From the NCBI GenBank assembly GCA_964574595.1, contig CAZNOF010000007.1:11703-75702 (forward strand): DNA of 64,000 nt. The letters run 5' to 3'. A program made the translations under genes and the position numbers. Origin of the DNA: an uncultured Pseudomonadales bacterium. Its GTDB lineage: Bacteria; Patescibacteriota; Microgenomatia; UBA1400; PJMF01. Below are positions 16,365 through 48,427 of the stretch, piece by piece; the first letter of the stretch is position 1; every line of letters begins with the position of its first letter. The notes under the pieces are model-generated. The model ran no database searches and was not told the origin of the DNA. It saw only the letters and a program-made list of their open reading frames with translations.

Positions 16365-16454
16365 AGGACTTTAGTATGCCATACTTTGGGCGTTTTAGAA
16401 CAGAGAAGTCAACTTAGTGTTATAATCGGCATTAGAAAGCCCTGGCTCTTTGTA

Positions 16455-17612: not shown

Positions 17613-18391
17613 CCACCATCTCAGTTATCACACCTTGTTTCAATGCTGAAAAATTCATCATGGCGTGTATCAGCTCAGTGGCCCAATCAGTCACCTTGAA
17701 CAACTATCAAATTGAACATATCCTGATTGATGATCATTCCTCTGACCAGACGGCATCTCTCATTCATTCATTAAACTCAAATGCTCAGCTGATTGAACTG
17801 AAACAACATCAAGGAGTCGGTGCAGCCAGAAATATTGGCTTACAACGTGCAACTGGAAAGTACGTTTTCTTTTTAGATGCAGACGATGTGCTCTTCCAAA
17901 ATAGTTTGCGAACTTTGTATCAAATAGCAGAAAAAACAGGATCAAGTTGGATTACTGGCGATTTCATTCGAAGCGACGAACATCTTGCCTACCAAATTGG
18001 CAATGACTACTACGGCTGGCCATTTTCATCGGCTGCCGAATTGTTAACATCTATGTATACAGGGCAGCATTTTTTTCAACAGAATAACTTGTTTTTGAAA
18101 GCCTTGCTTGATGGGGTAAACGGGTTTCAGGAGCAGTTAACCATGGCCGAAGATTTTGATCTCTGCACCAGACTGGCTCTCCAGGGAGTTGTTCCACACT
18201 ATCTTGCCGGACCACTTTATATTCATAGGTTGCATGACCAGAATACTTCAAACATCCATCTTCATAATAAAAATCAACATAAATCAGATGTCAAAAAACT
18301 GTTTGAAAACTATCAAAATGAAATGAAAAAAGTACTGAGTGACATTCAGTTTGAAAAAGTCAAAACGTATCTTATGGATATAAAGGTCTAA
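17609..18391 (+). CDS. family 2 glycosyltransferase
   Basis: GT2 N-terminal fold (ISVITPCFNAEKFIMACISS...IDDHSSDQT) with a DAD (DxD-like) motif. 260 aa. Confidence 0.75.
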   Translation: MTTISVITPCFNAEKFIMACISSVAQSVTLNNYQIEHILIDDHSSDQTASLIHSLNSNAQLIELKQHQGVGAARNIGLQRATGKYVFFLDADDVLFQNSLRTLYQIAEKTGSSWITGDFIRSDEHLAYQIGNDYYGWPFSSAAELLTSMYTGQHFFQQNNLFLKALLDGVNGFQEQLTMAEDFDLCTRLALQGVVPHYLAGPLYIHRLHDQNTSNIHLHNKNQHKSDVKKLFENYQNEMKKVLSDIQFEKVKTYLMDIKV

Positions 18392-24842: not shown

Positions 24843-25385
24843 CTAGGCTTTGGGGGGCCGTAAATACTCTTGTAGCGAAAAAATCGCATTACTACTAAAT
24901 ACCTCTTGAATTTCGCCTCTTATCGCCATGGCAACTGCTTCTTGTAAGGGTACCACTTTAAAACCCACAACTTCCTCTTCTTGATCATGTGTTTCTAAGG
25001 TACCAAACTCATCTACTTGAGCAAAATACAAACGAACTTTTTCCGAGGCCGCACTACTCAGCGCAAAATACTCGGCTATAAAGACAACTTCGTCCACTTG
25101 TACTCCTGTCTCTTCAAAGAGCTCGCGTTTAACTGCCATGTCTGGGTCTTCATTATCATTGACTCCACCACCTGGTAGTTCCCAATCCTCAGCATCAACT
25201 GGAAATCGGTATTGGCGCATTAACAAAACTTCATTTCTTTTATTTCTCACCAAAATGACAGCGCCATTTTTTCTCTCCAAAACTGCGTAGGTACTTGGAC
25301 TGCCATCTGGCATCTCAATTTGGTACTCTCTGACTACTGTCCAAGGATTTTGATAGACCACTTTATTCGTTCGTCTTTTATACAT
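24843..25385 (-). CDS. NUDIX hydrolase (ADP-ribose pyrophosphatase-like)
   Basis: Nudix box GGGVNDNEDPDMAVKRELFEETG. The likely start ATG at 25385 overlaps the TAA of the upstream gene (TAATG). The track's longer GTG start is at 25394. Confidence 0.8.
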   Translation of the reverse strand: MYKRRTNKVVYQNPWTVVREYQIEMPDGSPSTYAVLERKNGAVILVRNKRNEVLLMRQYRFPVDAEDWELPGGGVNDNEDPDMAVKRELFEETGVQVDEVVFIAEYFALSSAASEKVRLYFAQVDEFGTLETHDQEEEVVGFKVVPLQEAVAMAIRGEIQEVFSSNAIFSLQEYLRPPKA

Positions 25386-26440
25386 TACAACCACTCTTCC
25401 TGATCGGCTGCTCTTGATAATCGATCCATAACAGCTCTTCCAACTCCGGTAGCTGGGATAGCTTGAGCAATAATGATGTCAACTGCTTGGAGTTCAAAGT
25501 TCCGGAAAGCATCAAATAAAATAGCAGCATACCTCGCTGGCGATTTGGCAGCCAACTGAATGGGCGTAACCTCCTCACCTAGTTCATCAAGAGATAAAAT
25601 TGCGGCTTTCTCGCTTTTTTGTTCAGCTGCTTTGACGAGTTCTTTTGCTTTTTGTTTGAACAGTTCCACCGATGTCGCATGAATCAAGATAACGGATGAT
25701 TTTGGGGTGTAATGTTGGTATTTTAAGCCAGGAGATCTGACTATTTGCGTTTCAGAGGTTGTTAGTTGAGACAGTAATTGGAGATCTGGAATAAGCTGCT
25801 GCAGTTCTTCAAACGTGACTTCGCCAGGTCTTAACAGCATTGGCGGTTGAACAACTACATCGAGCACAGTCGATTCCACTCCCACATTCGTAGGTCCCCC
25901 ATCAATGATCATATCTACTTTGCCATCAAGATCATTTAAAACATGTTGCGCCGTAGTCGGACTCGGCCGTCCTGAAGTATTTGCCGATGGTGCAGCAATC
26001 GGCACGCCGGCCAAGCGAATTAACTCCTGAGCAATGGGATGACTTGGTAAACGAAGGGTGACTGTTTGAGCACCTGCAGTTACTTCTTGAGGAATGTTGT
26101 CTGCTTTTTGTAAGACTAATGTGAGTGGACCTGGCCAAAACTGACGAGCTAAAACACGAGCCAACTGCGGAATGTCTTTAGCATAAACATCCATATCCGC
26201 TCGATCAGCAATGTGAACAATGACTGGATTATCAACTGGTCGATTTTTGGCAACGAAAATACTTTTGACCGCTTCAGGATTCAGGGCGTTGGCTCCCAAC
26301 CCATAGACTGTTTCTGTAGGAAATGCCACCAGACCGCCCTCACGAATAATCTTCGCGGCTTCTTGGAGTTGCTCAGTCAGGTTTTCAAGTGACTTGATTT
26401 TGAGATAGACAGTTTTTTTCACCTGTCTATTGTAACTCAC
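25385..26440 (-). CDS. tsaC: L-threonylcarbamoyladenylate synthase (Sua5/TsaC long form: YrdC domain plus Sua5 C-terminal domain). The 5' end is approximate: a GTG start near 26423-26441.
   Basis: YrdC motifs (GGLVAFPTETVYGLGANA, SANTSGRPSPTTAQHV) and a Sua5 C-terminal domain. The track's ORF extends to 26647 over the divergent ABC gene with no Met. That extension is rejected. Confidence 0.75.
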   Translation of the reverse strand: MSYNRQVKKTVYLKIKSLENLTEQLQEAAKIIREGGLVAFPTETVYGLGANALNPEAVKSIFVAKNRPVDNPVIVHIADRADMDVYAKDIPQLARVLARQFWPGPLTLVLQKADNIPQEVTAGAQTVTLRLPSHPIAQELIRLAGVPIAAPSANTSGRPSPTTAQHVLNDLDGKVDMIIDGGPTNVGVESTVLDVVVQPPMLLRPGEVTFEELQQLIPDLQLLSQLTTSETQIVRSPGLKYQHYTPKSSVILIHATSVELFKQKAKELVKAAEQKSEKAAILSLDELGEEVTPIQLAAKSPARYAAILFDAFRNFELQAVDIIIAQAIPATGVGRAVMDRLSRAADQEEWL

Positions 26441-26501
26441 CCTGCTATATCTATTACTGGATGGTTTTTTTGACAAACTTCCAGTAAACTTGACGATACT
26501 T

Positions 26502-27446
26502 ATGGCAGATGTAATCCAAGTTGAACATTTAATAAAAAAATATAAGACGGGCGAAAAACGAGCCGTTGATGACATTTCATTCTCCGTCAAAGCTGGGGAA
26601 TTTTTTACGTTGCTGGGTCCAAACGGTGCTGGGAAAACGACGACCATTTCTATTTTAAATACAACACTCTCAAAAACATCTGGCCTGCTAAAAGTGGCCG
26701 GCTATGACGTGGACACACAAGCGGCTGAAGTTCGTCAATCGATCGGCGTTATCTTTCAAAACCAAAGTTTAGATTTAAATTTAACTGCTGAAGAAAATAT
26801 TCGCTTTCACGCTGTGCTTTATGGCCTGTACCCATTTCGACCAACATATAGTTTGATGCCGAAAGCATATAAAGACAAAGTGCAGGAACTAGCGAAAATA
26901 TTAGAAATTGAAGACAAAATCTTTGATCAAATCAAAACGTTCTCCGGCGGCATGAAGCGAAAATTAGAAATTATTCGTGGCCTGATTCACAATCCCAAAG
27001 TACTTTTCCTTGATGAGCCGACAACCGGATTAGACCCACTCAGCCGTCAAAATCTTTGGGAGTACTTGAAGACTGTTCGCAAAGAACTGAACACAACAAT
27101 TTTTTTGACTACTCACTACTTAGAAGAGGCAGAAAATGCTGACCGTGTGTGTATCATTAATCATGGCAAGATTATTTCACTCGGTTCACCTGAGCAACTA
27201 AAGAAACAATTTGTGGAAGAGTACATTACGCTGGATAGTGATAATCGATCAGCTTTAGAAAAAGAATTAAAAAGTCACAAGTTGAGATTCGAAGGAGCTG
27301 GACCTTACACTGTTCACCTAGATAAAAAATCTGTACAAAAAGTTATTCAGCTCGTAAAAGTAGAGTTGAGCGTCGTCAAAGTGCACACACCATCATTAGA
27401 AGAAGCCTATGTTGAAGTCATCCGAGAGGATCAAAATCATTCATAA
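26502..27446 (+). CDS. ABC transporter ATP-binding protein (ABC-2 / DrrA-like exporter ATPase)
   Basis: Walker A (GPNGAGKTT), signature (FSGGMKRKL) and Walker B (LFLDEPTTGLD). Paired with the downstream ABC-2 permease. Confidence 0.85.
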   Translation: MADVIQVEHLIKKYKTGEKRAVDDISFSVKAGEFFTLLGPNGAGKTTTISILNTTLSKTSGLLKVAGYDVDTQAAEVRQSIGVIFQNQSLDLNLTAEENIRFHAVLYGLYPFRPTYSLMPKAYKDKVQELAKILEIEDKIFDQIKTFSGGMKRKLEIIRGLIHNPKVLFLDEPTTGLDPLSRQNLWEYLKTVRKELNTTIFLTTHYLEEAENADRVCIINHGKIISLGSPEQLKKQFVEEYITLDSDNRSALEKELKSHKLRFEGAGPYTVHLDKKSVQKVIQLVKVELSVVKVHTPSLEEAYVEVIREDQNHS

Positions 27447-33780: not shown

Positions 33781-34170
33781 ATGAAACTCAATAAACTCAC
33801 ACCAGAGGAAGCCCACGTCATCATTGATAAAGGAAAAGAATTCCCTGGAACAGGAGAATACGACGACTTTTATGAAGATGGTATCTATATTTGCCGTCAG
33901 TGTAATACTCCACTGTATAAATCTGACGATAAGTTCAATGCCAACTGTGGTTGGCCAGCATTTGATAAAGAAATTCCAGGTGCAGTGAAACGCATTCCCG
34001 ATGCGGACGGCATCCGGGTAGAAATTCAGTGCAATACATGTGGAGCACACTTAGGACATGTTTTTACAGGTGAGCACTTTACTGAGACTAACGATCGACA
34101 CTGCGTCAACTCTCTGTCTATGAAGTTCATTCCGGCTGGTCAGAAAATTCCGAAAGTAGGTGAAAAATGA
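33781..34170 (+). CDS. msrB: peptide-methionine (R)-S-oxide reductase
   Basis: SelR/MsrB zinc motifs CRQC ... CNTC and the catalytic region (GWPAF...HLGHVF). Confidence 0.9.
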   Translation: MKLNKLTPEEAHVIIDKGKEFPGTGEYDDFYEDGIYICRQCNTPLYKSDDKFNANCGWPAFDKEIPGAVKRIPDADGIRVEIQCNTCGAHLGHVFTGEHFTETNDRHCVNSLSMKFIPAGQKIPKVGEK

Positions 34171-34709
34171 GTACAACAACACTTCAAACTGCTGTCTTTG
34201 GCGGAGGTTGTTTTTGGTGTACCGAAGCTGTTTTCTCCAAGTTAAAGGGCGTGGAATCAGTTACATCAGGATATGCGGGCGGTAAAATCGCAAATCCAAG
34301 CTACTTTCAAGTGAGCGAAGAGCTGACTGGGCATGCTGAGGTAGTTAAAATTGAGTTTGATCCAACAATCATCACTTACAATCAATTGCTGGATATTTTT
34401 TGGCACGTCCATGATCCTACGACTTTGAATCAGCAAGGTGCTGATGTTGGAACCCAATATCGATCAATCATTCTCTATACTTCAGCTGAGCAACAAAAAC
34501 AGGCGGAGGCGATGCTAGCAAAATTAAAAGAAACGAATGAGTTCAGAGCACCTATCGTGACTGAAATCAAACAACTAGACACTTTTTATACTGCAGAAGA
34601 GTATCACCAAAAGTACTACGAAAATAATGAAAGCCAACCATATTGTGAGGTCGTCATTAATCCAAAAATTCAAAAATTCTTGAAAAAGTATGCTGATTTA
34701 GTGAAGTGA
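34167..34709 (+). CDS. msrA: peptide-methionine (S)-S-oxide reductase
   Basis: The GCFWC active-site motif (FGGGCFWCTEAVF). Overlaps msrB by 4 nt. Confidence 0.9.
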   Translation: MSTTTLQTAVFGGGCFWCTEAVFSKLKGVESVTSGYAGGKIANPSYFQVSEELTGHAEVVKIEFDPTIITYNQLLDIFWHVHDPTTLNQQGADVGTQYRSIILYTSAEQQKQAEAMLAKLKETNEFRAPIVTEIKQLDTFYTAEEYHQKYYENNESQPYCEVVINPKIQKFLKKYADLVK

Positions 34710-34710
34710 A

Positions 34711-34998
34711 CTATTTTTTGGATGACTTTTTGACAATCTTGGCTGGTTTAACTACTGCGACCGTTTCCGAGACTGTCACACTCTGTTTTTGGAAAAATGC
34801 TAAGTAAATAATTGGCAAGATACCCATCGTGCTCAGCATGAAGAGAAATCAAAACCAGACCGCTTGGCCGTTGCGATCAGCTCTCCACACTGCATACCCT
34901 TTCAAGGCAATTTCCAGGACAATCAACGGAATCAAGAAGAAAAATAATGAGCTAGAAAATACTGCTGGCCAAAATGGATTGCGGTAACTGTTATACAT
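34711..34998 (-). pseudogene. DUF5652-like small two-transmembrane membrane protein gene interrupted by an in-frame TGA at codon 50 (34849..34851)
   Basis: GGAGG ribosome-binding site 4 nt upstream of the ATG. The frame reads MYNSYRNPFWPAVFSSSLFFFLIPLIVLEIALKGYAVWRADRNGQAVWF-TGA-FLFMLSTMGILPIIYLAFFQ... to a TAG at 34711. Both halves resemble the conserved KGxALW...WF...LNTxGILPIIYL pattern of a Patescibacteria-associated small protein family (from memory). Confidence 0.4.
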
Positions 34999-35013
34999 AC
35001 ATCCTCCTACCCC

Positions 35014-35196
35014 TTAATTTTTGATCAATTTATAGGTAATTACAAGCCCAATTGCTCCACCCAAACTACTCGTTAACACACCAGCTACAGAAAAGAGCGT
35101 GCCACCCCAAAGTGATGGCAAGTATCCACCAATGATTGAGCCAATGGTCACACCAAGATACATCAGCGTTTTTGAAGACATAGTTGAGTCTAGCAT
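35014..35196 (-). CDS. small Gly-rich membrane protein (60 aa, two transmembrane segments)
   Basis: The ATG overlaps the TAA of the upstream PRTase gene (TAATG). Hydrophobic Gly-rich helices (LGVTIGSIIGGYLPSLWGG...LGGAIGLVITY). Confidence 0.4.
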   Translation of the reverse strand: MLDSTMSSKTLMYLGVTIGSIIGGYLPSLWGGTLFSVAGVLTSSLGGAIGLVITYKLIKN

Positions 35197-35814: not shown

Positions 35815-36909
35815 CTAGGTCGTTATTTTTTCTAGGGCATCGGCATCTATGGCATCTTGTATTTCCATGGCAACTCTCTTTCCTACAGAGATGGCATCGC
35901 CAAATAAGTACTTACTATACGGTGTAGCGGCAATTCCGGGAGAACCTGGCATTCTTGGAGAAACATCGATTACCACAATCTCCTTTTTCTTTGCCCCTGC
36001 AGTCACAATTGATTGCAAAGCAAACGGGCCAATAATTCCGGGCGAATAGATTTCTTGAGAGGCTTTCACAAAACGCTCGGCCATAGCAAACGCCGGTTCT
36101 AATAATGATTCTAAAACCGTGACCGCTATATGCCCGGCCTCCTCATAGGAAATCGCGACCTTCTCTTGAACAGCTATTTGGTGTGCTGCTGGGAGCCGAA
36201 GCATGCCATCTAAATTAGTCTGCCGCCGCGTATCTGTCCCGAGCAACTCAAGCCGCTGATGGATGGGCGAGTAAAAAAAGTTAAAGTTCACTTGAGTTCC
36301 CAACACAAACTCTTCAATCACTGCCGTATCTAAAATCTGCTGCGTCATTTTTCCAGATTTGATCATCTCCCGACCCATTTTTTGAAACTCGTCAAAATCT
36401 TTGGCCAAGAAAAAAGCACGTTCAAATGAGCGTTCTTTTTCATTTGCTTTGACTAAACAAAGTCGGTCAATTTGCTTGGGATCAGAAAAATGTTTTGGAT
36501 ACGGGATACTGGCTTTATCAAGCAGATCATATTGATTTGGCTTAGCGCTCCGCTCTTCAATTTTCAGCAAATACTTATTGCCAAAAAAAGGAATTGGGAA
36601 CTGGTTCTCGATAGCCTGATAATTAAAATGGAGATACGCTTCAAATGAGCGGTTTGGAATCCAAATTGGATTGGATTTTTGTAACTGACTTATAACTGCA
36701 GGATGCAGCAACTCATCAAATCTATCTAAAAGCATGGAATCATCCACGCAGCCTACATTGCCGACTGTTTTGTAATACTTTGTGTACGTCTGTTCCCGAC
36801 CCTTCTCGGTCACTACCAACGTCTTAAAGCCAAGATCCTTGGCTCCTCGGCAAACGTCTAATGCCGAATGACTTCCCAAAGTAGCAATCGTAATTGGTGA
36901 GTCAGACAT
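35815..36909 (-). CDS. purP: PurP-like 5-formaminoimidazole-4-carboxamide ribonucleotide (FAICAR) synthetase, archaeal-type ATP-grasp, paralog 1
   Basis: The N-terminus ITIATLGSHSALDVCRGAKDLGF matches the remembered M. jannaschii PurP N-terminus (ITIATLGSHTSLHILKGAKLEGF). Conserved FFYSP and PG(I/M)IGPF(A/C)LQS segments. Size 364 aa. Confidence 0.7.
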   Translation of the reverse strand: MSDSPITIATLGSHSALDVCRGAKDLGFKTLVVTEKGREQTYTKYYKTVGNVGCVDDSMLLDRFDELLHPAVISQLQKSNPIWIPNRSFEAYLHFNYQAIENQFPIPFFGNKYLLKIEERSAKPNQYDLLDKASIPYPKHFSDPKQIDRLCLVKANEKERSFERAFFLAKDFDEFQKMGREMIKSGKMTQQILDTAVIEEFVLGTQVNFNFFYSPIHQRLELLGTDTRRQTNLDGMLRLPAAHQIAVQEKVAISYEEAGHIAVTVLESLLEPAFAMAERFVKASQEIYSPGIIGPFALQSIVTAGAKKKEIVVIDVSPRMPGSPGIAATPYSKYLFGDAISVGKRVAMEIQDAIDADALEKITT

Positions 36910-37920
36910 TTAGTTGAGTACCTCCGCCAAACGATCTTGAGCAATTGCTAGTTTAATCTCCCGGGCAATTCTTCTGCCGGTACTCATCGGCTCGTCATAG
37001 ATAAGTGAAGCATATGGAGAGCTATCAATGAACAAATTTGTTCCAGCCACAATTCTGCAAGATACTTCGACAGCGTAAAATTTCTGATCCTGAGTAATGA
37101 TCGTTTCTAAACAGAACGGTCCAAAGAGACCTTTTTTATCAATCAGCCTTTTACCACTTTCTATCAACCGATCAGCCATTGCATAGGCTTCAGGCATCAA
37201 CGACTCGCGGATAACTAAGGGACTATTACCGACCACTACAAAGGAAGGCACGATATCAATTTGCTCTTGGTGTTTAAGTGGTAATCTTCCTAATGAATCA
37301 ACATTTGACTCGTAGCGGCGGTCAATACTTAACAACTCATTCTGGCCAGTAAGTGGTGAGTAGAAAAAGTGCAAATACATTGGAACACCAATGATATATT
37401 CTTGAACAATAAAGTCCTTTGATGTAAACTTTTTTAATTTTTCCTGGAAGTCGGTTTGATTGTGTGCGATGAAGTAACCCACTCCTCCAGCCGCTCCATA
37501 TGACTTCACAATAACTGGTCGATCAATTACGTCTTTTTCTGTAAAAATTCGTGGAACATTAATGTGGGCATCTTTCAACCATTCATTCTGTTTTTCCCGA
37601 TCAGCTTCTAAGTCAAGCACTTTTTTGTTGCCAAAATATGGCGTGGTAATTTTTTTGTTTCCTTCAATACCGAGATATGCCACAAAGGAACCATGAGGCA
37701 CGAGAATCGAGTTGTATTTTTTTAACTCTGTTTCTGCCTGCTCAAATTGAGCAAATGAATCAATCACAATTTGGTGATCGATAAAAGGAAATCGTTTGTA
37801 AAAACCAGCACGACTCGGGGTTGTCACCACCACAGTTTCAAAACCTTCATCTCTGGCTCCCTTCAGAATTTGCAATGATGAGTGACTGCCAAGAGTGGCG
37901 ATAGAGTAGGGTTTTTTCAT
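36910..37920 (-). CDS. purP: PurP-like FAICAR synthetase, paralog 2. Start chosen at the ATG at 37920; the track's TTG at 37953 would overlap purF.
   Basis: YSIATLGSHSSLQILKGARDEGF, YFGNKK, HFFYSPL, LFGPFCLETI and GRRIAREIKLA closely parallel archaeal PurP. Tandem with paralog 1. Confidence 0.7.
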   Translation of the reverse strand: MKKPYSIATLGSHSSLQILKGARDEGFETVVVTTPSRAGFYKRFPFIDHQIVIDSFAQFEQAETELKKYNSILVPHGSFVAYLGIEGNKKITTPYFGNKKVLDLEADREKQNEWLKDAHINVPRIFTEKDVIDRPVIVKSYGAAGGVGYFIAHNQTDFQEKLKKFTSKDFIVQEYIIGVPMYLHFFYSPLTGQNELLSIDRRYESNVDSLGRLPLKHQEQIDIVPSFVVVGNSPLVIRESLMPEAYAMADRLIESGKRLIDKKGLFGPFCLETIITQDQKFYAVEVSCRIVAGTNLFIDSSPYASLIYDEPMSTGRRIAREIKLAIAQDRLAEVLN

Positions 37921-37936
37921 ATATGAAAGAGAGTGC

Positions 37937-39474
37937 TTATGACTGTACCACAACTGAATTTTTTTGCTCTAAGTGAATATTGCCAACTCGATCAATTGGG
38001 TATCTTTTACCCAACATACAGCCCATACAAAATCCTTTTGCTTGAGCATTACCTGTTAATGCCTCCAGTAAACCTTCAGCAGATAAGTAGGCTAACGAGT
38101 CAGCGCCAATTTCTGCCCTGACGCCTTCTAAATCGCCCTGATGCTGATAAACAATTAACTCCTGCTGTTTGCGCGTATTCACGCCTAAATGACAGGTTTT
38201 ATCAATTGGCGGACAAAGTATTCGAATATGAACGGCTTTGACTTGATACTTTTCTTTCAGTAGTCGGACCAGGCCAGTTGTTACATTGCCACGCACCAAC
38301 GAGTCATCTACCAATACCACTTTTTTACCTCGTAGCATCTCCACATCAAAATCGAAATGTGTCAGCACTTTTTGTAGGATAGAGTCAATTTGGGCGGACA
38401 TAAAAGTGCGCTTTTCCTCAGTAGGCGAATTGATATCAGTAATGGCTTGAGAGTAATCCAAGCCTAGTTCTTGAGCAAAGGCTTCACCACCTGGTATACC
38501 AGTTCCCGGAACCCCAACCACCAAATCCACATCTGCTTTAGTGAGTGGTGCTTCTCTAGCCAAGATACTGCCGCAACGGGCCCGAACTTCCGTTACTTTG
38601 AATGATTCATTCCCCTCTTCAGGAGTGATTCGCGGGTAATGAGCTCGGCTATTTCCGTCTTGAATGTAGACTGTTTCAAAAACACAAGTGGCCGTGCCCA
38701 TAGCTCGCTGTTGAAAAATCAGTTTAGCTCCATCCTCATCGATTCTTAAGATACTTCCTGGCATAACTTCCAAAAAATTCTCAACACCCATCTCCACTAA
38801 CGCACCTGTCTCAGATGCAGCCAACCAAATTCGCTGTTTCGTTTTTAAATCTGTCTTGTATCCATACCAAAGTGGCCGAACACCTAAAGGATCTCTCGCT
38901 AGGTAAAGGAAATTCTGGGTTCCAATAATTAAACTCCAAGCACCTTTTTTTTGAGGAATGGCGTGAATCAATCGTTGTTCCATCGTTGGGAAAAGAGAGT
39001 TCTTTAGCTCATCAACAAATTCTGCCGTATCACTTTTATTAGCCACGGAGTCAGTCATGATTTGAATAAACTGGCCATTGTGGGCAAGCACGAAGGGGGC
39101 GGGATCAATAACATTTCGAGCGACGAATGGTTGCACATTATCTGAAGAGTAACTTCCTGAAGTACCATATCGTGTTTGAAAGACCCAAGTTTTGGCTTTT
39201 TTACTCTTTAGCTTTTTGATTACTTCAATCGCAAAAACCTCATTTATCATCCCTTCACCTTTGTGTGTCAAAACTTTGCCTTGCGAAGTGATTGCACAGC
39301 AACCTGCTCCGTCATAGCCACGAGTCTGTAAATTTTGTAAACCAACCAGTCCGGTTTGGGAAAGTGCCGAATCCCTAGGAGCAAAAATCCCGACCACACC
39401 GCACTTATCTTGCAACGCCCCACGTTCTTCGGCCTGCAATCTGTTAAATGTACGTTTACGGTGAGTGGACTCCA
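37937..39474 (-). CDS. purF: amidophosphoribosyltransferase (class II glutamine amidotransferase plus PRTase domain)
   Basis: Catalytic Cys following a propeptide (..DKCGVVGIF). PRTase motif (VVLVDDSLVRGNVT). TAGGAAA ribosome-binding site upstream of the MESTHRK start at 39474. The longer ORF to 39568 is rejected. Confidence 0.9.
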
Positions 39475-39589: not shown

Positions 39590-40390
39590 TTAACGAAACT
39601 GATTAATTTCATCTCGCAATTTCTTGGCTTCCATCGCTGGGTTTTCGGCAAAAATAATACCTCGGGCTGAGTTAATGATCATGCCCTGCTTGGAAGTGTT
39701 TAAACCGGCTGTACAAGCGTCTTCGACGCTTCCACCTTGCGCGCCAACTCCTGGTACGAGAAAGGTCATCTCGCCGGCCAATTTTCTGATGGCAGCCATT
39801 TCTTTAGGATACGTCGCCCCAACTACCAACATACAGTTTTGATTTTTGTTCCAATTCTTCACAATTGCTTCCGTGACTCTTTGCCAAAGCGGTTGTCCTT
39901 CAACGAGCAAATCTTGGAACTCGCCAGAGCCCGGGTTTGAAGTCCGACATAAGAAAATACAGACTTTATCAGTGCGATCCAAAAAAGGCTGCATGGCTTC
40001 TTGTCCCAGATACGAATGCAACGTCACCGAGTCAAAGCCATACCAATCAAATGCTGAGCGAACATAGGCGGTGTTGGTCGAACCAATATCTCCACGCTTG
40101 GCATCCAAAATCGTAAAAATATCCGGGTGATTCTCTTGTAAGTACTCCATCGTCATCTTCAACTCTTTGATACCTTGCTCACCTCTCATCTCGTAGTAGG
40201 CTGAGTTGGGTTTGTAGGATGAAACAAACTCGTGGGTCTGTTCAATGATCCACTTGTTGAACTCAAACTGAGGAAATTTTTCAGCTTGGAATTTTGCCGG
40301 CAACTTGCTGAGTTCTGAGTCGAGCCCGACACTTAGTAATGAGTTCACTTTTTCTTCTCTAGCATTGAGTTTTAGTTCGGCTGGTGACAT
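39590..40390 (-). CDS. pyrF: orotidine 5'-phosphate decarboxylase (type 2)
   Basis: OMPdecase long-form features (ILDAKRGDIGST, FLCRTSNPGS). 266 aa. Lies in the pyr operon. Confidence 0.85.
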   Translation of the reverse strand: MSPAELKLNAREEKVNSLLSVGLDSELSKLPAKFQAEKFPQFEFNKWIIEQTHEFVSSYKPNSAYYEMRGEQGIKELKMTMEYLQENHPDIFTILDAKRGDIGSTNTAYVRSAFDWYGFDSVTLHSYLGQEAMQPFLDRTDKVCIFLCRTSNPGSGEFQDLLVEGQPLWQRVTEAIVKNWNKNQNCMLVVGATYPKEMAAIRKLAGEMTFLVPGVGAQGGSVEDACTAGLNTSKQGMIINSARGIIFAENPAMEAKKLRDEINQFR

Positions 40391-40391
40391 A

Positions 40392-41021
40392 TTATTTTCC
40401 CCAACTGTATGGATCTTTCATCCAGTCTTGTATTGTCGCAATTTGCGACTGAGTGATTTTTTGTGCCTTCACTGCCTCTTCCAAGATCACTTTGAAAGTA
40501 GTTGCCATATGTAACTTTACATTGGCTTTTTCAAAAGCTGTAAAGACTTCTTGAAACTCGTAATTCGTAATACATAAACAATCGGTGACAATGGCACCTT
40601 CAGCTCTAAGAGATGCCACTCCAGCTAAACTAGAGCCACCGGTTGTGACGTGATCTTCAATTAGAAGGACCTTTTTACCTTTGACACTTCCTCCCTCAAC
40701 CATTTTCTTGGTGCCATGATCCTTGGCTTGTTTTCTGACGAACACAGATGGCTTCTTCAGGATAAATCCTAATGCTGCACTATGTGGAATCCCAGCAGTT
40801 TCAATTCCAGCAACCACATCAAAATCAATTTTATCTTTGCGAATTAAATAAGCTAATCCCTCGAGTACAGTATCCCAATTTTCCGGGTAAAAGGGCAACT
40901 TTCTGTTATCCACATAGACGGGCGAAATAATTCCTGATTTAAACGTAATTGGCTTTTCAAGAGAAAAACCAACGGCATTGATTTCAAGTAATGCTTGGGC
41001 CACTGATTGTTTGATATCCAT
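40392..41021 (-). CDS. pyrE: orotate phosphoribosyltransferase
   Basis: PRTase motif (KVLLIEDHVTTGGSS). OPRTase N-terminal region (FKSGIISPVYVDNR). Confidence 0.85.
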   Translation of the reverse strand: MDIKQSVAQALLEINAVGFSLEKPITFKSGIISPVYVDNRKLPFYPENWDTVLEGLAYLIRKDKIDFDVVAGIETAGIPHSAALGFILKKPSVFVRKQAKDHGTKKMVEGGSVKGKKVLLIEDHVTTGGSSLAGVASLRAEGAIVTDCLCITNYEFQEVFTAFEKANVKLHMATTFKVILEEAVKAQKITQSQIATIQDWMKDPYSWGK

Positions 41022-41040
41022 AGTAACCTTCCTTTTCTAT

Positions 41041-42108
41041 TTATAAATTTGCTTGATATATTTCTTCACCTAATTCAGGATTCCACATGGCTCCAGTGGC
41101 GCTCATGACTGCGTCAGCACCCACTTGGCGGTACTCCGCGAAGTCAGCAGCACTTAAGACACCACCAACACCGATAATTTCGTACTTCATATTTAGTTCT
41201 GTTCGTAAACGAGCCAATCGAGTTACCATGTCTAATCCTGCCCATTTGATTCCAGCTCCGCAGACCCCGCTTCTTGCTCGGCCAGCGCCAGGTAATGCCT
41301 GATTGCCATCTTTATCAACAATCGTAGCAGCAATGGTATTGATTGCTGAAAATGCCTGGACAACATTTCCCAGTTCACCCACAAATTGCTTGAGTCTCTG
41401 ATCATCCATAAAGGCAATTTTTAAGATTAATGGAATATCACCAATCTCGTCTTTGACTTTTTGAGCAATCACTTTTGTCCTTTGAATGTCAAAACACAGC
41501 AAATCTGCTTTGCCTTCATTTGGACAACTCAGATTCGCTTCCATGACTTTGACACCAGTCTCCTTCAGGAGCTTGGCGGTCAAAACAAAGTCGGCCACGT
41601 ACTTGTCAAAGTCGCCACTCCCATCACCAGTACCTTGAAAACTGCCAATTAATAACTGACCTTCGCCTGCTTCTTGGAGAGCTTTTCTGATATCTGCTTG
41701 CCAGATAGCTGGCGTTTTTGATGGCACCCCAAACGAGTTCGTAATGGAAAGTGGCTCGGTGTACTCCGTATTGGCGAAGACCTCATGACTGGCTTTTTCT
41801 AATGTTAAATCGCCATCAAAATGAGCTGCCAGAACATTTGGCCAGGGATGACAGGCATGTTCGTGAGAACGAACTGTTTTGTAGACACAGATATCAAATC
41901 CTTTTTTAAAGGCTGCCGTCGTAAAATTACTATTGAGTAATGGTCCAGCGGGAATGCCAAATGGCGTATAGACTGTTTGACCTAAGAACTTCGCCGATGG
42001 TTTCTTGACTCGTTTTACTTCTTTTGGCGCAACAAACGCACCAAATGGACCCTGATCATAATTCTCTTCGTATGACTTGGATGGATCGTAAAATGGGGTT
42101 TTTAACAT
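41041..42108 (-). CDS. pyrD: dihydroorotate dehydrogenase
   Basis: TIM-barrel DHODH motifs (EANLSCPN, IIGVGGV). Position in the pyr operon. Confidence 0.8.
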   Translation of the reverse strand: MLKTPFYDPSKSYEENYDQGPFGAFVAPKEVKRVKKPSAKFLGQTVYTPFGIPAGPLLNSNFTTAAFKKGFDICVYKTVRSHEHACHPWPNVLAAHFDGDLTLEKASHEVFANTEYTEPLSITNSFGVPSKTPAIWQADIRKALQEAGEGQLLIGSFQGTGDGSGDFDKYVADFVLTAKLLKETGVKVMEANLSCPNEGKADLLCFDIQRTKVIAQKVKDEIGDIPLILKIAFMDDQRLKQFVGELGNVVQAFSAINTIAATIVDKDGNQALPGAGRARSGVCGAGIKWAGLDMVTRLARLRTELNMKYEIIGVGGVLSAADFAEYRQVGADAVMSATGAMWNPELGEEIYQANL

Positions 42109-42122
42109 AGCTTCCTTGTGTA

Positions 42123-43160
42123 TTAAATAACCAGGTTTCCATTTTCAACTAAAACTGTTCCTCGCAGAACAACTGTCTCAACCACCCCGTACAATTCCCA
42201 GCCCTCAAAGGGTGACCAGCCGCATTTTGACTCATAGCCGTACTCACCAACTCTCCACATTTTATCTGGATCAATTTCAATGTAGGTTTTTTCTTGGACA
42301 GGAGTATTAAAAATACGCTGAGCATTATCATGCAAAACGGCTTGTATTTTTTCTAGAGGAAATTTGCCATCGTGAACAGCTTTAAACATCAGTCCTACTG
42401 CAGTTTCCAATCCCGGAACTCCGTACGGAGCGGGCTCTTTTTTCTTCTCTTCAATCGTATGAGGAGCATGGTCCGTTTCCACTAGATCGATCGTGCCATT
42501 TTTCAATCCCTCCCACAGAGCATCTTGATCAGCTTGAGTTCCTAAAGGCGGTTTCATCATTGCTAACCCACCTAGCTTCTGACGATCTTCTCCTGTCATA
42601 AATAAGTGATGTGGGCAGACTCCAGCCGTAATTTTTTGACCACCCTGCTTCGCTTCTGCCACCATTGCCACTTCCGAAGCTTGGGTAATATGACAGACGT
42701 GTAAACGTTGTCCATGTTCCGCTGCCTTAGAAATAGCCATTCTTAGCTGCTCACCTTCTGCGTGAACGAGAATTGGCTTGCCAACTGGCCAAGTCGCAAA
42801 AACTTTTTCCACTAAAACTGGGTTCTCCAGTAACATTTCCCCAGTCGTGTGATTACAGTACAGCTTGAGTCCATAGACTCGTGGGTTTGCTGCTGCATCA
42901 ACAAAGCTATCAGTATTGAGACCATTTGTTCCGTAATGAAATGAAATATCGCAGGCAGCCTTCTGAGCCAACGCGATCTTCTCTTCCAATCTCTCCAAGC
43001 TTATCGTGGGGGTAGGGTTATTCGGCATATCAATAATAAAAGTAAATCCACCTTTGACTGCCGCTCTGCTGCCCGTCAAGAAATCCTCTTTATGTGTCGC
43101 CCCCGGTTCTCGTAAGTGGACGTGTGGATCAATAAAGCCTGGCAATTTGAGAAGAGACAT
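42123..43160 (-). CDS. pyrC: dihydroorotase (amidohydrolase family, short form)
   Basis: Metal-binding DPHVHLREPG motif and later conserved His/Asp residues (LVETDHAPH). Operon context. Confidence 0.8.
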   Translation of the reverse strand: MSLLKLPGFIDPHVHLREPGATHKEDFLTGSRAAVKGGFTFIIDMPNNPTPTISLERLEEKIALAQKAACDISFHYGTNGLNTDSFVDAAANPRVYGLKLYCNHTTGEMLLENPVLVEKVFATWPVGKPILVHAEGEQLRMAISKAAEHGQRLHVCHITQASEVAMVAEAKQGGQKITAGVCPHHLFMTGEDRQKLGGLAMMKPPLGTQADQDALWEGLKNGTIDLVETDHAPHTIEEKKKEPAPYGVPGLETAVGLMFKAVHDGKFPLEKIQAVLHDNAQRIFNTPVQEKTYIEIDPDKMWRVGEYGYESKCGWSPFEGWELYGVVETVVLRGTVLVENGNLVI

Positions 43161-43165
43161 ATCAG

Positions 43166-44113
43166 CTATATTCCTTCCTTCAATAGAACGAGTGATAAGA
43201 GAGCCATTCTGACGTACATACCGTTTCGCATTTGTTCAGTAATGTAGACTGCTCGTTTGTCCAAATCGACATCCATGGTGATCTCACCAACGCGTGGTAA
43301 TGGATGCATAATAATGGCTGTTTTCTTCAATTTTTTAATGAGTGTCGGAGTAATAATATAATGATGTTTCAATTTCTCATATAAATCAAGATCGGTAAAT
43401 CGTTCTTTTTGTACTCTAGTCACGTACAAGACATCGGTGTCTTTGAGAACATCATCTAGCGTCTCACTTTCATGAATCGTGACGCCTCTAGAACGAAGTT
43501 TTTCTTGTAAGCCACTTGGTAAACGCAAAATGTCTGGCGAGACGTAGTTAATTTTGATCGATTTATATTGAGACAGGAGTTTTGATAACGAGTGGATGGT
43601 TCTACCATTCAAGAGATCTCCCACCATGGTTATCGTTAAACCTTCTGGCGAACTGAAATGATCACTGATCGTAAAAAAGTCTAACAGAGCTTGAGATGGA
43701 TGCTCCCCCACACCATCTCCAGCATTAATAACTGGCTTTTCTGAAAAGTCGGCGGCAATTCGAGCTGATCCTAAATCTGGATGACGGATGACAACTACAT
43801 CAGAATAACAGGCAAAAGTTCTGACAGTATCAGGCAAGGTTTCGCCTTTACTGACTGATGAGTAACTTACACCTTGCAAGGGAATAAAGCTGCCCCCTAA
43901 GCGCTGCATGGCAGCCACAAAGGAACCAAACGTTCTACTTGATGGCTCGTAAAAAAGGGCCGTCATCAGTTTCCCTTTTAAAATGTCTGTCGAGCCTTTT
44001 GACTCCACCAACTTTCTCATCTTCTTGCCATACTCTCTGACAAGCTGAAGATCTTCATGCGTGAACTGATCCGCAGTTAAAATGTCCTGTTGGAAAAAAT
44101 TATTTTTGAGCAT
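43166..44113 (-). CDS. pyrB: aspartate carbamoyltransferase catalytic subunit
   Basis: Carbamoyl-phosphate binding SSRT motif (FYEPSSRTFGSF) and an HPLP motif (IMHPLPR). Confidence 0.9.
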   Translation of the reverse strand: MLKNNFFQQDILTADQFTHEDLQLVREYGKKMRKLVESKGSTDILKGKLMTALFYEPSSRTFGSFVAAMQRLGGSFIPLQGVSYSSVSKGETLPDTVRTFACYSDVVVIRHPDLGSARIAADFSEKPVINAGDGVGEHPSQALLDFFTISDHFSSPEGLTITMVGDLLNGRTIHSLSKLLSQYKSIKINYVSPDILRLPSGLQEKLRSRGVTIHESETLDDVLKDTDVLYVTRVQKERFTDLDLYEKLKHHYIITPTLIKKLKKTAIIMHPLPRVGEITMDVDLDKRAVYITEQMRNGMYVRMALLSLVLLKEGI

Positions 44114-47100
44114 ACGCTCCTTTATTAATTGATAATTGTTCTACATACTCTCGCCAGGATTTAATTGCCAAATCAGGCAAACTATAACGGGTTACGGCCT
44201 CGACAAAATAGGCGGCATTGTCTGTTGAAGCAAAAATTGGAATCCCGAAATCCACTGCCATTCTTCTCATCATGTAGCCATCAGTATTACCATTTTTATT
44301 CTTCTTGGGAGTTGAATCTTTGTGGGATCGAGGCACCACGACTGCAAAGTCAATTTCGCGCTTGGTCATTAAGTCTACTGCATCTGGATGCTTCCCCTCC
44401 TGAATTTTACTTATCTCCGTGGCGGTGACTCTGTTTTCTTTTAAGAAAAGATATGTGCCTGAGGTAGCGTAAATTCGATAGCCTTCGTTCATTAATTTGC
44501 GGCAACTCTCTACAAAATTTAATTTATTTCTGGCACCACCTAAACTAACTAACACAGCCTTTTTTTGAGGGAGTTTAATATTTGTGGCTAATAACCCTTT
44601 TAAGTAGGCCTCATGAATATCTTTTCCAAATGCTGCTACTTCTCCTGTAGAACCCATCTCGACACGTAAAATAGGATCACTGCCACGTAGCTTCAGAAAT
44701 GAAAATTGTGGAACTTTAATCGCTTGGTACGGTATCTCTGTAATAATGTTTGGAGAAACCTTTTTCCCAAGAGCAATTTCCGTGGCTGCTTCAATAAAAT
44801 TTTGATTAAGTACTTTACTAACAAACGGCATGCTTCGAGAGGCTCGTAAATTACATTCGATAACAAACGCGGTGTCATCTTCAATTAAAAATTGAATGTT
44901 AAACGGACCTTGGACGTGCAACGCATCAACAATATCTTCGACAGATTTTTGAATTCGCTGCTTTATGCTGTCTGAAAGAGTGATTGATGGTAGAGATAAA
45001 GTAGAATCGCCAGAATGAACGCCCCCTGCTTCTAGATGTTCTGAAAGGGCGGATCTGACAACTTTGCCATTTTGAGCCACGCCATCGTAATCACATTCAC
45101 GGGCGTTATTCAGGAAGTAACTCATCACCAGGGGATGTTCTTTGAGATCTAACTCATTTCTGTCCATGTAACGTTCCAAGTCTTGCTCTGATTTGAGAAC
45201 GCTCATTGCTTTCCCTGACAGCACAAAGGATGGTCTAACGAGAATTGGATAGCCAATTTCTTTGGCCAGCGCTAAGGCTTTTTTGGTATTGTTTGCTTCA
45301 CACCAAGCAGGCTGAAATATTTTCAATCGATCAAGCAAAGCGCTGAACAGTTGTCTGTCCTCAGCACGCTGAATATCTTCAGCAGAAGTACCTAGAATTG
45401 GTACGTGATGGTCATACAATTTTTGAGCTAAATTATTGGGAATTTGGCCGCCGACGGACAAGATGAAAGGAGACTGTTCGATATCGTAAATATCCAAAAC
45501 TTGTTCCAAGCAGAGTGCCTCAAAATACAGATAATCCGAGTTGTCATAATCTGTGGAAACGGTTTCTGGATTACAGTTCACCATGATCGATTTGTAGCCA
45601 TTTTTCTTCAACGTTTGAATTGTATTCACTGCACACCAGTCGAATTCCACAGATGTACCAATAGAGTATGGCCCACCACCAATCACGATCACTTTTTTTT
45701 CTTTCGGATCAGCAACGTGATCAGATTCTGTGGCGGCATAAGTAAAGTATAGGTAATTGGTTTGGGCTGGGAACTCGCCTGCCATCGTGTCAATTCTTTT
45801 CACCACAGGCAAGATGCCTAATTTTTTACGCTTCACTCTCATTTGCTCTTCTGACTTTTCCATCAGATCAGCAATTTGTTTATCAGAGAAACCATTTCGC
45901 TTCGCAACTCTGAACAGTTCCGGAGACAAGTTTTTCGTTTTCTCAATTTCCTTATAAATCGAGATGATGTGCTGCAATTTTTCTAAGAACCAAGTATCTA
46001 TCTTGGTAATCTTTGCCACCGTTTTCACAGAAATACCAGCTCTCAGTGCTGAACAAATTGTCATTAAACGCATCGTGTTTGGAACTGATAACTTTTTTAA
46101 TAGAACGGCTTTGGTTTCTCGATTAAAATTTTTATCGATGACGCCTTGGTACCCATCATTTAACATTCGCGTGCCTTTTTGAATGGCTTCTTCGAAGGTT
46201 CGGCCGATAGCCATAACCTCGCCAACACTTTTCATCTCACTACCGATTTCTGTGACAGCGTGTGAGTATTTATCTAAGTCCCAGCGCGGAATCTTGACAA
46301 CCACATAATCTAAGGCTGGCTCAAAGAAAGCAGAGGTTTTTTGGGTAATAGAGTTTTTGAGTTCAGGTAATGTTTTCCCAAGTGCTAACTTGGCAGCCAC
46401 ATAGGCTAAAGGATAGCCAGTAGCTTTTGAGGCCAAGGCAGACGATCGGGATAAACGAGCATTTACTTCAATAATGCGGTAGTCACTAGTTTCCGGGTTC
46501 AAGGCGTACTGAATGTTGCACTCACCCACAATTTTAAGTTCACGGATTGTGTCCATGGCAACTTGGCGAAGTAAAAAATACTCATGGTTGTTCAACGTCT
46601 GAGACGGTGCGATCACAATTGATTCACCAGTGTGAATACCAACTGGGTCAAAGTTTTCCATATTACAGACGGTAATACAGTTATCAGCTTGGTCTCGAAC
46701 CACTTCGTACTCAATCTCTTTCCAACCCGCTAATGATTCTTCGACAATTACTTGGGGTGCTGTGGCGAATGCTTTCTTCAGCAACGCGCTTAGGATAGCC
46801 TCTGAGGAAGCCACACCTGACCCTGCACCTCCCAAGGCAAAACCTGTCCTCAACATGACCGGATAGTGAAGTTCTCTGGCATATGCCAACCCATCCTCAA
46901 GCGAAGTGACAATCCTCCCCCTTGCTGTTTTCAACCCAATCTTCCCGAGTCTTTCAGCAAATCGTTCTCTGTCCTCCGTATCGACGATTGCCTGTACTGG
47001 CGTACCTAATACTTGTACGTGATACTTTGCTAAAATTCCGGAATGATACAAATCCATGCCACAGTTCAATGCAGTCTGCCCCCCAAATGACAACAGAATG

Positions 47101-47360
47101 CCTTGGGGTTTTTCTTTCTGAATAACTTTCTCTACAAAGTACGGTGAGACAGGCAAGAAATAAATCTCATCTGCCAAACCTTGTGAAGTTTGAATCGTGG
47201 CCACATTTGGATTGATTAGGATAATGCGTTTTCCTTCTTCTTTCAGCGCTTTGATGGCTTGCGTCCCTGAGTAGTCAAACTCGCCTGCCTCTCCAATTTT
47301 CAGTGCTCCTGATCCAAGGAGTAAAACGGTGTGAATGGTGTTTGGCATGTGATCTTTCAT
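44100..47360 (-). CDS. carB: carbamoyl-phosphate synthase large subunit
   Basis: 1086 aa with duplicated ATP-grasp halves, an oligomerisation domain and a C-terminal MGS-like domain. Overlaps carA by 4 nt and pyrB by 14 nt. Confidence 0.95.
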   Translation of the reverse strand: MKDHMPNTIHTVLLLGSGALKIGEAGEFDYSGTQAIKALKEEGKRIILINPNVATIQTSQGLADEIYFLPVSPYFVEKVIQKEKPQGILLSFGGQTALNCGMDLYHSGILAKYHVQVLGTPVQAIVDTEDRERFAERLGKIGLKTARGRIVTSLEDGLAYARELHYPVMLRTGFALGGAGSGVASSEAILSALLKKAFATAPQVIVEESLAGWKEIEYEVVRDQADNCITVCNMENFDPVGIHTGESIVIAPSQTLNNHEYFLLRQVAMDTIRELKIVGECNIQYALNPETSDYRIIEVNARLSRSSALASKATGYPLAYVAAKLALGKTLPELKNSITQKTSAFFEPALDYVVVKIPRWDLDKYSHAVTEIGSEMKSVGEVMAIGRTFEEAIQKGTRMLNDGYQGVIDKNFNRETKAVLLKKLSVPNTMRLMTICSALRAGISVKTVAKITKIDTWFLEKLQHIISIYKEIEKTKNLSPELFRVAKRNGFSDKQIADLMEKSEEQMRVKRKKLGILPVVKRIDTMAGEFPAQTNYLYFTYAATESDHVADPKEKKVIVIGGGPYSIGTSVEFDWCAVNTIQTLKKNGYKSIMVNCNPETVSTDYDNSDYLYFEALCLEQVLDIYDIEQSPFILSVGGQIPNNLAQKLYDHHVPILGTSAEDIQRAEDRQLFSALLDRLKIFQPAWCEANNTKKALALAKEIGYPILVRPSFVLSGKAMSVLKSEQDLERYMDRNELDLKEHPLVMSYFLNNARECDYDGVAQNGKVVRSALSEHLEAGGVHSGDSTLSLPSITLSDSIKQRIQKSVEDIVDALHVQGPFNIQFLIEDDTAFVIECNLRASRSMPFVSKVLNQNFIEAATEIALGKKVSPNIITEIPYQAIKVPQFSFLKLRGSDPILRVEMGSTGEVAAFGKDIHEAYLKGLLATNIKLPQKKAVLVSLGGARNKLNFVESCRKLMNEGYRIYATSGTYLFLKENRVTATEISKIQEGKHPDAVDLMTKREIDFAVVVPRSHKDSTPKKNKNGNTDGYMMRRMAVDFGIPIFASTDNAAYFVEAVTRYSLPDLAIKSWREYVEQLSINKGAYAQK

Positions 47361-48427
47361 GTTAATACCTCAAAAATCCAATCAGTATCAAATGGGCCTG
47401 GCTCCCCTTCCGGATGGAACTGAACACTCCAGGCTTTTTGTTGGGTACTTTGTACCCCTTCATTCGTATTGTCATTTAAGTTTACAAACCACTCTTTTAC
47501 TGTTGAGGGCAAGGATTCTCTCTTGACGGCATACCCGTGATTTTGTGAGGTTAAATAGGCTTTTTTCGTCGAAAGGTCTTGGCATGGCTGATTAAGCCCT
47601 CGGTGCCCGTATGGCAATTTATATGTATCTCCACCAACAGCCAAGGCGAATAATTGATGACCCAAGCAAATGCCTAAGAAAGGAATTCCTTTAGCCAATA
47701 CTTCCTTAATGTGTCTCACGGTAATAAGGCAATCTTTTGGATCACCAGGACCATTGGAACACAGGACGCAATCAAATTTTTCCTTCAATTCAAATGGGCT
47801 CATGTCCCAGGGAATTCGGATAATGGTGAAACCTTTATTAAGCAGCGCTCTCAAAATACCGTGCTTAACGCCGCAATCTATCACCACTACTGTTTTGCCA
47901 TTTGCCAGCTTCTTTTCTGGAGTGTAATGCAACACTTTTGGATAACTGACTCGCTGAACTTGGTTAACGGATTGCGCTTTTTTCCAGACGGGTGATTTTT
48001 TCTTAAAGGAGATTACTCCTCTCATACTTCCAAATTGGCGTAGTTTCTGGGTCAAAGCCCGAGTGTCTATTCCTGTAATTCCTGGAACTTTATTTTTCCG
48101 TAACCACTGGGAAAATGATTGAGTAGACGCGTGGTGAGACTCTTCCACAGTCAGATCACCCACTATCACGGCTTGTGTCCAAACTTTTTCAGATTCAAAA
48201 TTTTCTGATAGGTGTGGGGCTCGAGCAATAGATTTAGGAACTCCATAATTTCCGATTAAAGGAAATGTGAAAACTAAAATCTGACCGGCAAAGGATGGAT
48301 CAGAGAGACTTTGACAGTACCCAGTCATCCCAGTTGAAAAGACGACTTCACCGGCAACTTCAAGTTCTGCTCCAAAATGATCACCTTCAAATACGCTACC
48401 GTCTTCTAAATGTAAGTATGCTTTCAT
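47357..48427 (-). CDS. carA: carbamoyl-phosphate synthase small (glutaminase) subunit
   Basis: CPSase small-chain N-domain plus class I glutamine amidotransferase with the catalytic Cys (GICLGHQ). 356 aa. Confidence 0.9.
   Translation of the reverse strand: MKAYLHLEDGSVFEGDHFGAELEVAGEVVFSTGMTGYCQSLSDPSFAGQILVFTFPLIGNYGVPKSIARAPHLSENFESEKVWTQAVIVGDLTVEESHHASTQSFSQWLRKNKVPGITGIDTRALTQKLRQFGSMRGVISFKKKSPVWKKAQSVNQVQRVSYPKVLHYTPEKKLANGKTVVVIDCGVKHGILRALLNKGFTIIRIPWDMSPFELKEKFDCVLCSNGPGDPKDCLITVRHIKEVLAKGIPFLGICLGHQLFALAVGGDTYKLPYGHRGLNQPCQDLSTKKAYLTSQNHGYAVKRESLPSTVKEWFVNLNDNTNEGVQSTQQKAWSVQFHPEGEPGPFDTDWIFEVLT

Follow-up and report, generated by a model that had tools for sequence, protein, structure and literature searches.

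A DUF5652 membrane-protein gene interrupted by an in-frame TGA at codon 50 in a Patescibacteria-like contig, probably a young nonsense allele

The window (the whole 64,000-nucleotide stretch analysed here) encodes on its minus strand a small membrane protein of the DUF5652 family, the reading frame of which contains a TGA at codon 50 (Table 1). The initial annotation had described this interrupted frame with the strand unstated; when the reverse complement of positions 35030-34690 was read, the GGAGG sequence, its 4-nt distance to the ATG and the TGA at codon 50 were all recovered as described. The sense strand at the start of the gene reads ...AAGGGGTAGGAGGATGT-ATG-TAT-AAC..., and an AGGAGG or AAGGAG sequence at the same 4-nt spacing is also kept at five orthologous loci (L001-L005, see below). 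The 49 sense codons before the TGA (MYNSYRNPFWPAVFSSSLFFFLIPLIVLEIALKGYAVWRADRNGQAVWF) encode helix 1 and the conserved loop W-[RK]-A-x-R-N-x-Q-x-x-W-F; the NCBI source record lists this half as a gene of 49 aa (P0124). The 45 sense codons past the TGA, in an unchanged frame (FLFMLSTMGILPIIYLAFFQKQSVTVSETVAVVKPAKIVKKSSKK), encode helix 2, with the motif N/S-T-x-G-I-L-P-I-I-Y-L-A-F-F-Q, followed by a Lys-rich tail, and their number equals that of the orthologue. Both peptides quoted earlier, IALKGYAVWRADRNGQAVWF and LSTMGILPIIYL, were found in the translation. The second half does have an ATG of its own, as had been proposed, but at codon 54 and not at about position 34834; this Met54 codon is specific to the lineage, with ATT at L001-L004 and GTT at L005.

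Table 1. Coordinates of the features at the interrupted DUF5652 locus (window positions).
Feature	Position	Strand	Remarks
MsrA gene	34167..34709	+	convergent neighbour; TGA stop at 34707-34709
Stop TAG of the full-length frame	34711..34713	-	same codon position as the TAA of the 85% identical orthologue
DUF5652 C-half, codons 51-95	34714..34848	-	PF18893 profile 45-67; E=9.5e-5 alone
ATG (Met54)	34837..34839	-	9 nt 3' of the TGA; without Shine-Dalgarno upstream
In-frame TGA, codon 50	34849..34851	-	Pfam profile position 44
DUF5652 N-half, ATG and codons 1-49	34852..34998	-	translation; PF18893 profile 7-43, E=2.1e-7 alone
DUF5652 start ATG	34998-34996	-	read directly
Shine-Dalgarno GGAGG	35003..35007	-	read directly; spacer ATGT (4 nt) before the ATG
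60-aa membrane-protein gene	35014..35196	-	co-directional ORF, 15 nt upstream of the DUF5652 start

The conceptual 95-aa read-through product matched the Pfam family PF18893 (DUF5652) with 64.1 bits (E=9.7e-18, cutoff 23.4), a score that places the match far beyond chance, and its residues 14-73 aligned to positions 8-67 of the 71-position profile with no insertion or deletion across the TGA. Scored alone, the N-half reached 31.0 bits and the C-half 22.5 bits, the latter slightly below the cutoff; as the first covers profile positions 7-43 and the second positions 45-67, the TGA sits exactly at profile position 44. The gapless match upheld the earlier proposal that both halves belong to one gene, and the family named for it was the correct one. 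At all of the 87 family loci that were taken from genome and metagenome collections the gene is continuous across the junction, so that the two halves are not normally separate genes. No model for this family was found in NCBIfam, and a second DUF5652 paralogue was not found in the 64-kb window. In the literature, no experimental work on DUF5652 function was found, and the single paper naming DUF5652 concerns nidoviruses.

PF18893 comprises small two-helix membrane proteins of Patescibacteria/CPR bacteria and DPANN archaea, with which the window copy shares the profile match, the conserved residues and the gene order of its orthologues. All the residues that are invariant in the family (W38, Q45, W48-F49, T57, G59, L61, I63, Y65 and F69-Q70) are present. 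The copy differs from the family in the stop at the start of helix 2, by which two helices that are both encoded are split instead of forming one chain, and in three residues (V37, D41 and M54) seen in none of the 87 relatives, where the corresponding columns hold mainly Leu (L80/M6), Gly or Ala (G52/A32) and a hydrophobic residue (I61/L13/V12/F1), respectively. The AlphaFold model of the 85% identical orthologue P0001 is a helix-loop-helix of moderate confidence (mean pLDDT 64.7, from a shallow alignment), and residue 50 lies inside its second helix (residues 46-57).

The 60-aa protein encoded directly upstream is glycine-rich and weakly similar to Transgly_assoc (GlsB-YeaQ-YmgE; E=0.015). 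Its gene stands at the same place at L001-L005 and at the more distant locus L088, and it forms with the DUF5652 gene a conserved pair of small membrane-protein genes. On the other side, the TGA of MsrA and the TAG of the DUF5652 frame are 1 nt apart, a tight layout found likewise at L001 and L005; with a gap of this size there is no room for a terminator, and an overlap of both transcripts at the 3' ends must follow. Further upstream on the minus strand lie two tandem archaeal-type PurP ATP-grasp paralogues (DUF1246+DUF1297; 35815-36909 and 36910-37953), in a bacterial contig, and then a 543-aa protein with a phosphoribosyltransferase domain; at L005 there is one PurP gene, preceded by an 845-aa protein without a Pfam domain.

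Among the other genes of the window are those for alanyl-tRNA synthetase, OmpR/histidine-kinase pairs, RND and MacB-type efflux systems and LytR-CpsA-Psr, besides glycogen and pyrimidine genes, and this content is that of a bacterium. The homologues of its MsrA carry the names Patescibacteria group, Daviesbacteria and Woesebacteria, which suggests that the organism is Patescibacteria-like. The glycogen/alpha-glucan cluster (13522-19919) includes a phosphorylase-like gene, GH57, GT2 and a starch-synthase-type glycogen synthase, together with UDP-galactopyranose mutase, and a complete operon for de novo pyrimidine synthesis is located at 39590-48427; with these two, the metabolism is unusually rich for a Patescibacteria-like genome. 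As listed, the Sua5/TsaC ORF (25385-26647, minus strand) begins 98 residues ahead of its Pfam domain and shares about 160 nt with the 5' end of the divergent ABC-transporter gene (26490-27446, plus strand); a true start further downstream is probable.

A search of 5.8 billion protein clusters yielded three relatives of the DUF5652 protein: P0001 (95 aa, 85% identical), encoded on four short contigs from two JGI metagenomes and two SRA runs (L001-L004); P0002 (94 aa, 58% identical), encoded on a 584-kb contig of GCA_040384245.1 (L005); and P0003 (80 aa, 45% identical). The gene order at L001-L005 is that of the window, with a PurP-like ATP-grasp gene, a phosphoribosyltransferase, a membrane protein of 55-60 aa, DUF5652, and the convergent MsrA and MsrB. 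The next relative (L088/L089, from GCA_965610435.1), a 106-aa DUF5652 protein, was found through its adjacent MsrA, which is 84% identical to that of the window. A scan of genome contigs returned 80 DUF5652 loci, none of them more than 63% identical to the window copy, and one of metagenome contigs returned two distant loci.

When the DNA sequences were aligned, the TGA of the window stood against a cysteine codon at each of the five closest loci (TGC at L001-L004 and TGT at L005), from which it is separated by one third-position change. The protein of the next relative, L088/L089, has Ile at this position, and the column over the 87 loci consists of Ile (n = 47), Val (n = 31), Leu (n = 4) and Cys (n = 5), the last being confined to L001-L005; Cys also occurs in the neighbouring column, at 17 of the 87 loci. 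From this composition, and from the location of residue 50 inside the second helix of the P0001 model, codon 50 is a generic hydrophobic helix position, and its Cys is a clade-specific filler that is neither conserved nor redox-active. Since 82 of the 87 loci have Ile, Val or Leu and Cys is found only at the five closest, nothing demands a special residue there. The initial annotation had suggested checking whether the TGA aligns with a conserved Trp, Gly or Leu; the column is Ile, Val or Leu family-wide, with Cys in the nearest clade.

A reassignment of UGA throughout the genome, to Trp (code 4) or to Gly (code 25), is one way in which the full frame could be read. The DUF5652 family does occur in lineages with code 25, as homologues from other MAGs (L065 among them) have in-frame TGA codons at Gly positions. 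In the window, however, TGA closes the MsrA gene (...KKYADLVK-TGA) at the place where its 91% identical orthologue at L001 ends in TAG (...KKYADLLK-TAG) and the orthologue at L005 in TAA, the TAA of the 84% identical orthologue standing one residue further on; MsrB terminates in TGA both in the window and at L001, and TGA likewise closes several other well-delimited genes. The window is densely covered by table-11 ORFs, of which those of at least 100 aa end in TAA (n = 43), TAG (n = 14) or TGA (n = 12); no internal TGA was found in any other real gene of the 64-kb window, and the TGA at codon 50 is aligned to Ile, Val, Leu and Cys, which are neither Gly nor Trp. TGA is therefore a genuine stop in the source genome, which uses the standard code 11, and global recoding, refuted by the homology of the MsrA and MsrB stops and by the ORF tiling, has a negligible probability. 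Codes 4 and 25 had already been judged unlikely, on the strength of two ATGA overlaps; the MsrA stop is the stronger argument and excludes them. Of the two overlaps, the one at 17609-17612 is real, but positions 14676-14673 read TTGA, and the following ATG lies 2 nt beyond; there, on the minus strand, TGA closes the phosphorylase-like gene, and the start codon of UDP-galactopyranose mutase is either the overlapping TTG or this ATG.

The code-25 lineages (Gracilibacteria and Absconditabacteria) also hold DUF5652 genes with an internal TGA, but the source genome differs from them in using TGA as a terminator and in having the TGA of codon 50 off the Gly position. In-frame TGA codons were observed in DUF5652 homologues of MAGs labelled 'uncultured Candidatus Peribacteria' (L065:8358-8360, L022:10019-10021, L081:9953-9955 and L085:331-333). 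That of L065 falls in the family Gly/Ala column (G52/A32 of 87), which fits UGA read as Gly (code 25), suggesting that these 'Peribacteria' MAGs are of the Gracilibacteria/Absconditabacteria type, or mislabelled.

By the classic first criterion, a selenoprotein gene has a UGA that aligns to Cys and is conserved on both sides, and the window copy, with its in-frame UGA, its conserved flanks and Cys in the two closest orthologues, has this much in common with bacterial selenoprotein genes. If the UGA were read as selenocysteine, forming a Sec/Cys pair with the orthologues, the residue would lie within a membrane helix, with no canonical SECIS, in a Patescibacteria-like host, a combination that we regard as very improbable. 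The Cys is neither conserved nor redox-active, the column holding I47/V31/L4 elsewhere and Ile in the next relative, it is frequent as a helix filler at the adjacent column too, and neither a partner Cys nor a CxxC-type motif accompanies it. The redox enzymes encoded nearby use Cys (GCFWC in MsrA, RHCVNS in MsrB, and a DsbD-thioredoxin fusion).

The RNA and the gene content of the window speak against selenocysteine as well. There were no Rfam matches at the gathering thresholds, and in 34600-35100 no SECIS or other RNA family appeared even at E<=10. From the UGA on, 62 nt fold with a minimum free energy of -11.1 kcal/mol (z=-1.2), which was equalled or surpassed by 28 of 200 shuffled sequences and, among 840 random in-frame coding windows from the same contig, by 36%, that is, no better than chance. 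The best downstream structure has the apical loop UCU and so lacks the G that bacterial SECIS apical loops typically carry. Four of the seven differences between the window and L001 fall in an 8-bp stem 3' of the TGA, as would be the case for a compensatory hairpin, but this candidate was set aside, since the structure comes from the window sequence itself and its stability is no better than chance. A tRNA scan of the 64-kb window returned no tRNA of any kind, hence no tRNA-Sec, and Pfam searches found no SelA, SelB or SelD domain among its approximately 58 ORFs. A literature search for selenocysteine in CPR/Patescibacteria gave nothing relevant. The selenocysteine-like event that the initial annotation had listed among its options thus agrees with the Cys of the two closest orthologues and failed the RNA and conservation tests and, within the 64-kb window, those for tRNA-Sec and sel genes; selenocysteine decoding itself, which lacks here the SECIS-like structure, the Sec machinery in the window, the conserved Cys and the redox motif of known bacterial selenoprotein genes, is a very poor candidate.

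The age of the lesion was approached through the comparison with L001. In the four neighbouring genes the synonymous divergence between the two is dS 0.5-1.4, with an omega of about 0.03, and the N-half of the DUF5652 gene has an omega of 0.094. In the conserved core past the TGA (codons 51-71) six synonymous changes and one non-synonymous change were counted (omega 0.026, dS about 0.77), and the frame, the length and the position of the stop past the TGA are unchanged. Had the C-half gone untranslated along the whole branch, with about 0.4 substitutions per site and 50 non-synonymous sites, about 20 replacements should have accumulated. The single one observed means that the TGA is recent, or is an error, or that the C-half is still translated, and a Poisson bound would limit any neutral period to about one quarter of the window branch at most.

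With L005 as the outgroup, six changes in the DUF5652 protein were specific to the window (L13V, L37V, A41D, S46A, C50stop and T73S) and none to L001, while the four neighbouring genes pooled gave nine each. This asymmetry is borderline (Fisher p=0.052, or p=0.12 without the stop itself) and, together with V37, D41 and M54, gives a hint that constraint may have been relaxed across the whole gene in the source lineage.

We consider it probable that the gene is an evolutionarily young nonsense allele, that is, a nascent pseudogene or a strain-level knock-out. In the source clade, the first hydrophobic position of helix 2 would have become Cys (TGC or TGT), and a single third-position change to A would then have produced the TGA. 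Read as a stop, it would end translation from the intact Shine-Dalgarno sequence and ATG after 49 residues, giving a product that would keep helix 1 and the loop and lose helix 2 with most of the family-invariant residues, and the gene would thereby be inactivated. Very recent pseudogenization or a strain-level knock-out is the most likely form of such an inactivation; the truncated product is presumably non-functional, and the change is taken to be biological and not an assembly error. Under this account, the TGA must be recent, as the frame and length past it are intact and synonymous changes exceed non-synonymous ones by 6:1.

The copy resembles other young single-lesion bacterial pseudogenes in that one base change separates it from intact orthologues, in its retained RBS, start, frame and stop, and in the hint of a raised rate of amino-acid substitution in the affected lineage; it differs from them in that its downstream half has so far not decayed and that the lesion is known from one assembly. 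The disabling lesion stands at a syntenic locus where the orthologues are intact. A recent nonsense mutation or pseudogene had headed the options of the initial annotation, which did not commit itself to any; it is the best supported of them. The purifying pattern past the TGA by itself agrees as well with an error or with continued translation as with a recent knock-out, and these two have to be weighed.

An error in sequencing, assembly or consensus would mean that the organism truly has TGC or TGT (Cys) at codon 50 and an intact gene. A single base separates the TGA from the Cys codons of the orthologues; the RBS, start, frame and length are intact, the downstream half is conserved (omega 0.026), and the lineage is known from one metagenome-derived contig. 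MsrA (P0004, 100% identical), MsrB, the 60-aa neighbour and P0124 each come from one 85,931-bp NCBI contig only, and no MsrA between 91% and 100% identity was found in the protein collection, from which the source lineage is a singleton. About 60 other genes of the 64-kb window, on the other hand, are free of frameshifts and internal stops. No broken gene was found elsewhere in it: the ORF-poor stretches turned out to hold genes for small membrane proteins, and the initial 1.1 kb, free of ORFs, belong to a minus-strand gene that runs past the left end. As no other gene in the window is interrupted, a general assembly error has a low probability. A single miscall would also leave unexplained V37, D41 and M54 and the 6:0 asymmetry in the same copy, which weakly favour a real lesion. 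On balance an error is unlikely.

The 49-aa ORF was briefly considered as a lead through its 90% cluster, which contains 811-aa ENA proteins, and this lead was dropped as a clustering artefact, there being no sequence similarity. The representative of the 90%-identity cluster of P0124 is an unrelated, phage-tail-fibre-like ENA protein of 811 aa (P0125/P0126), by which the ORF is hidden from representative-based searches.

The gene could also still be functional, either through re-initiation at the AUG of Met54, giving two one-helix peptides, or through read-through to 95 aa by some of the ribosomes with a near-cognate tRNA (Trp or Cys). The downstream core has kept its frame and stop position and shows six synonymous changes to one non-synonymous, a pattern that is equally expected from a very recent mutation. 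Its sole non-synonymous change, ATT to ATG at Met54, 9 nt past the TGA, creates a start codon where no member of the family (0/87) has Met, and might be a compensatory restart codon instead of drift. This second ATG, however, has no Shine-Dalgarno sequence, a restart there would drop the first four residues of helix 2, and all of the 87 family loci encode both helices as one chain. The stop is followed by U, and in E. coli termination at UGA is most efficient in the context UGA-U, a rule that may not transfer to this phylum. Continued function therefore appears rather unlikely, and the young nonsense allele remains the reading that we prefer.

For annotation, what the source record lists as a 49-aa ORF is the N-terminal fragment of a DUF5652 gene, and a pseudogene flag or a check of the reads is called for. 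The locus is also a cautionary case, as a UGA/Cys pair between conserved flanks arises trivially here, TGY being one step from TGA and the Cys a mere hydrophobic filler. Wider interest would follow only if the selenocysteine or the restart reading were shown to be true. As it stands, the finding is genuine but ordinary, and represents one more disrupted copy of a widespread family of small membrane proteins.
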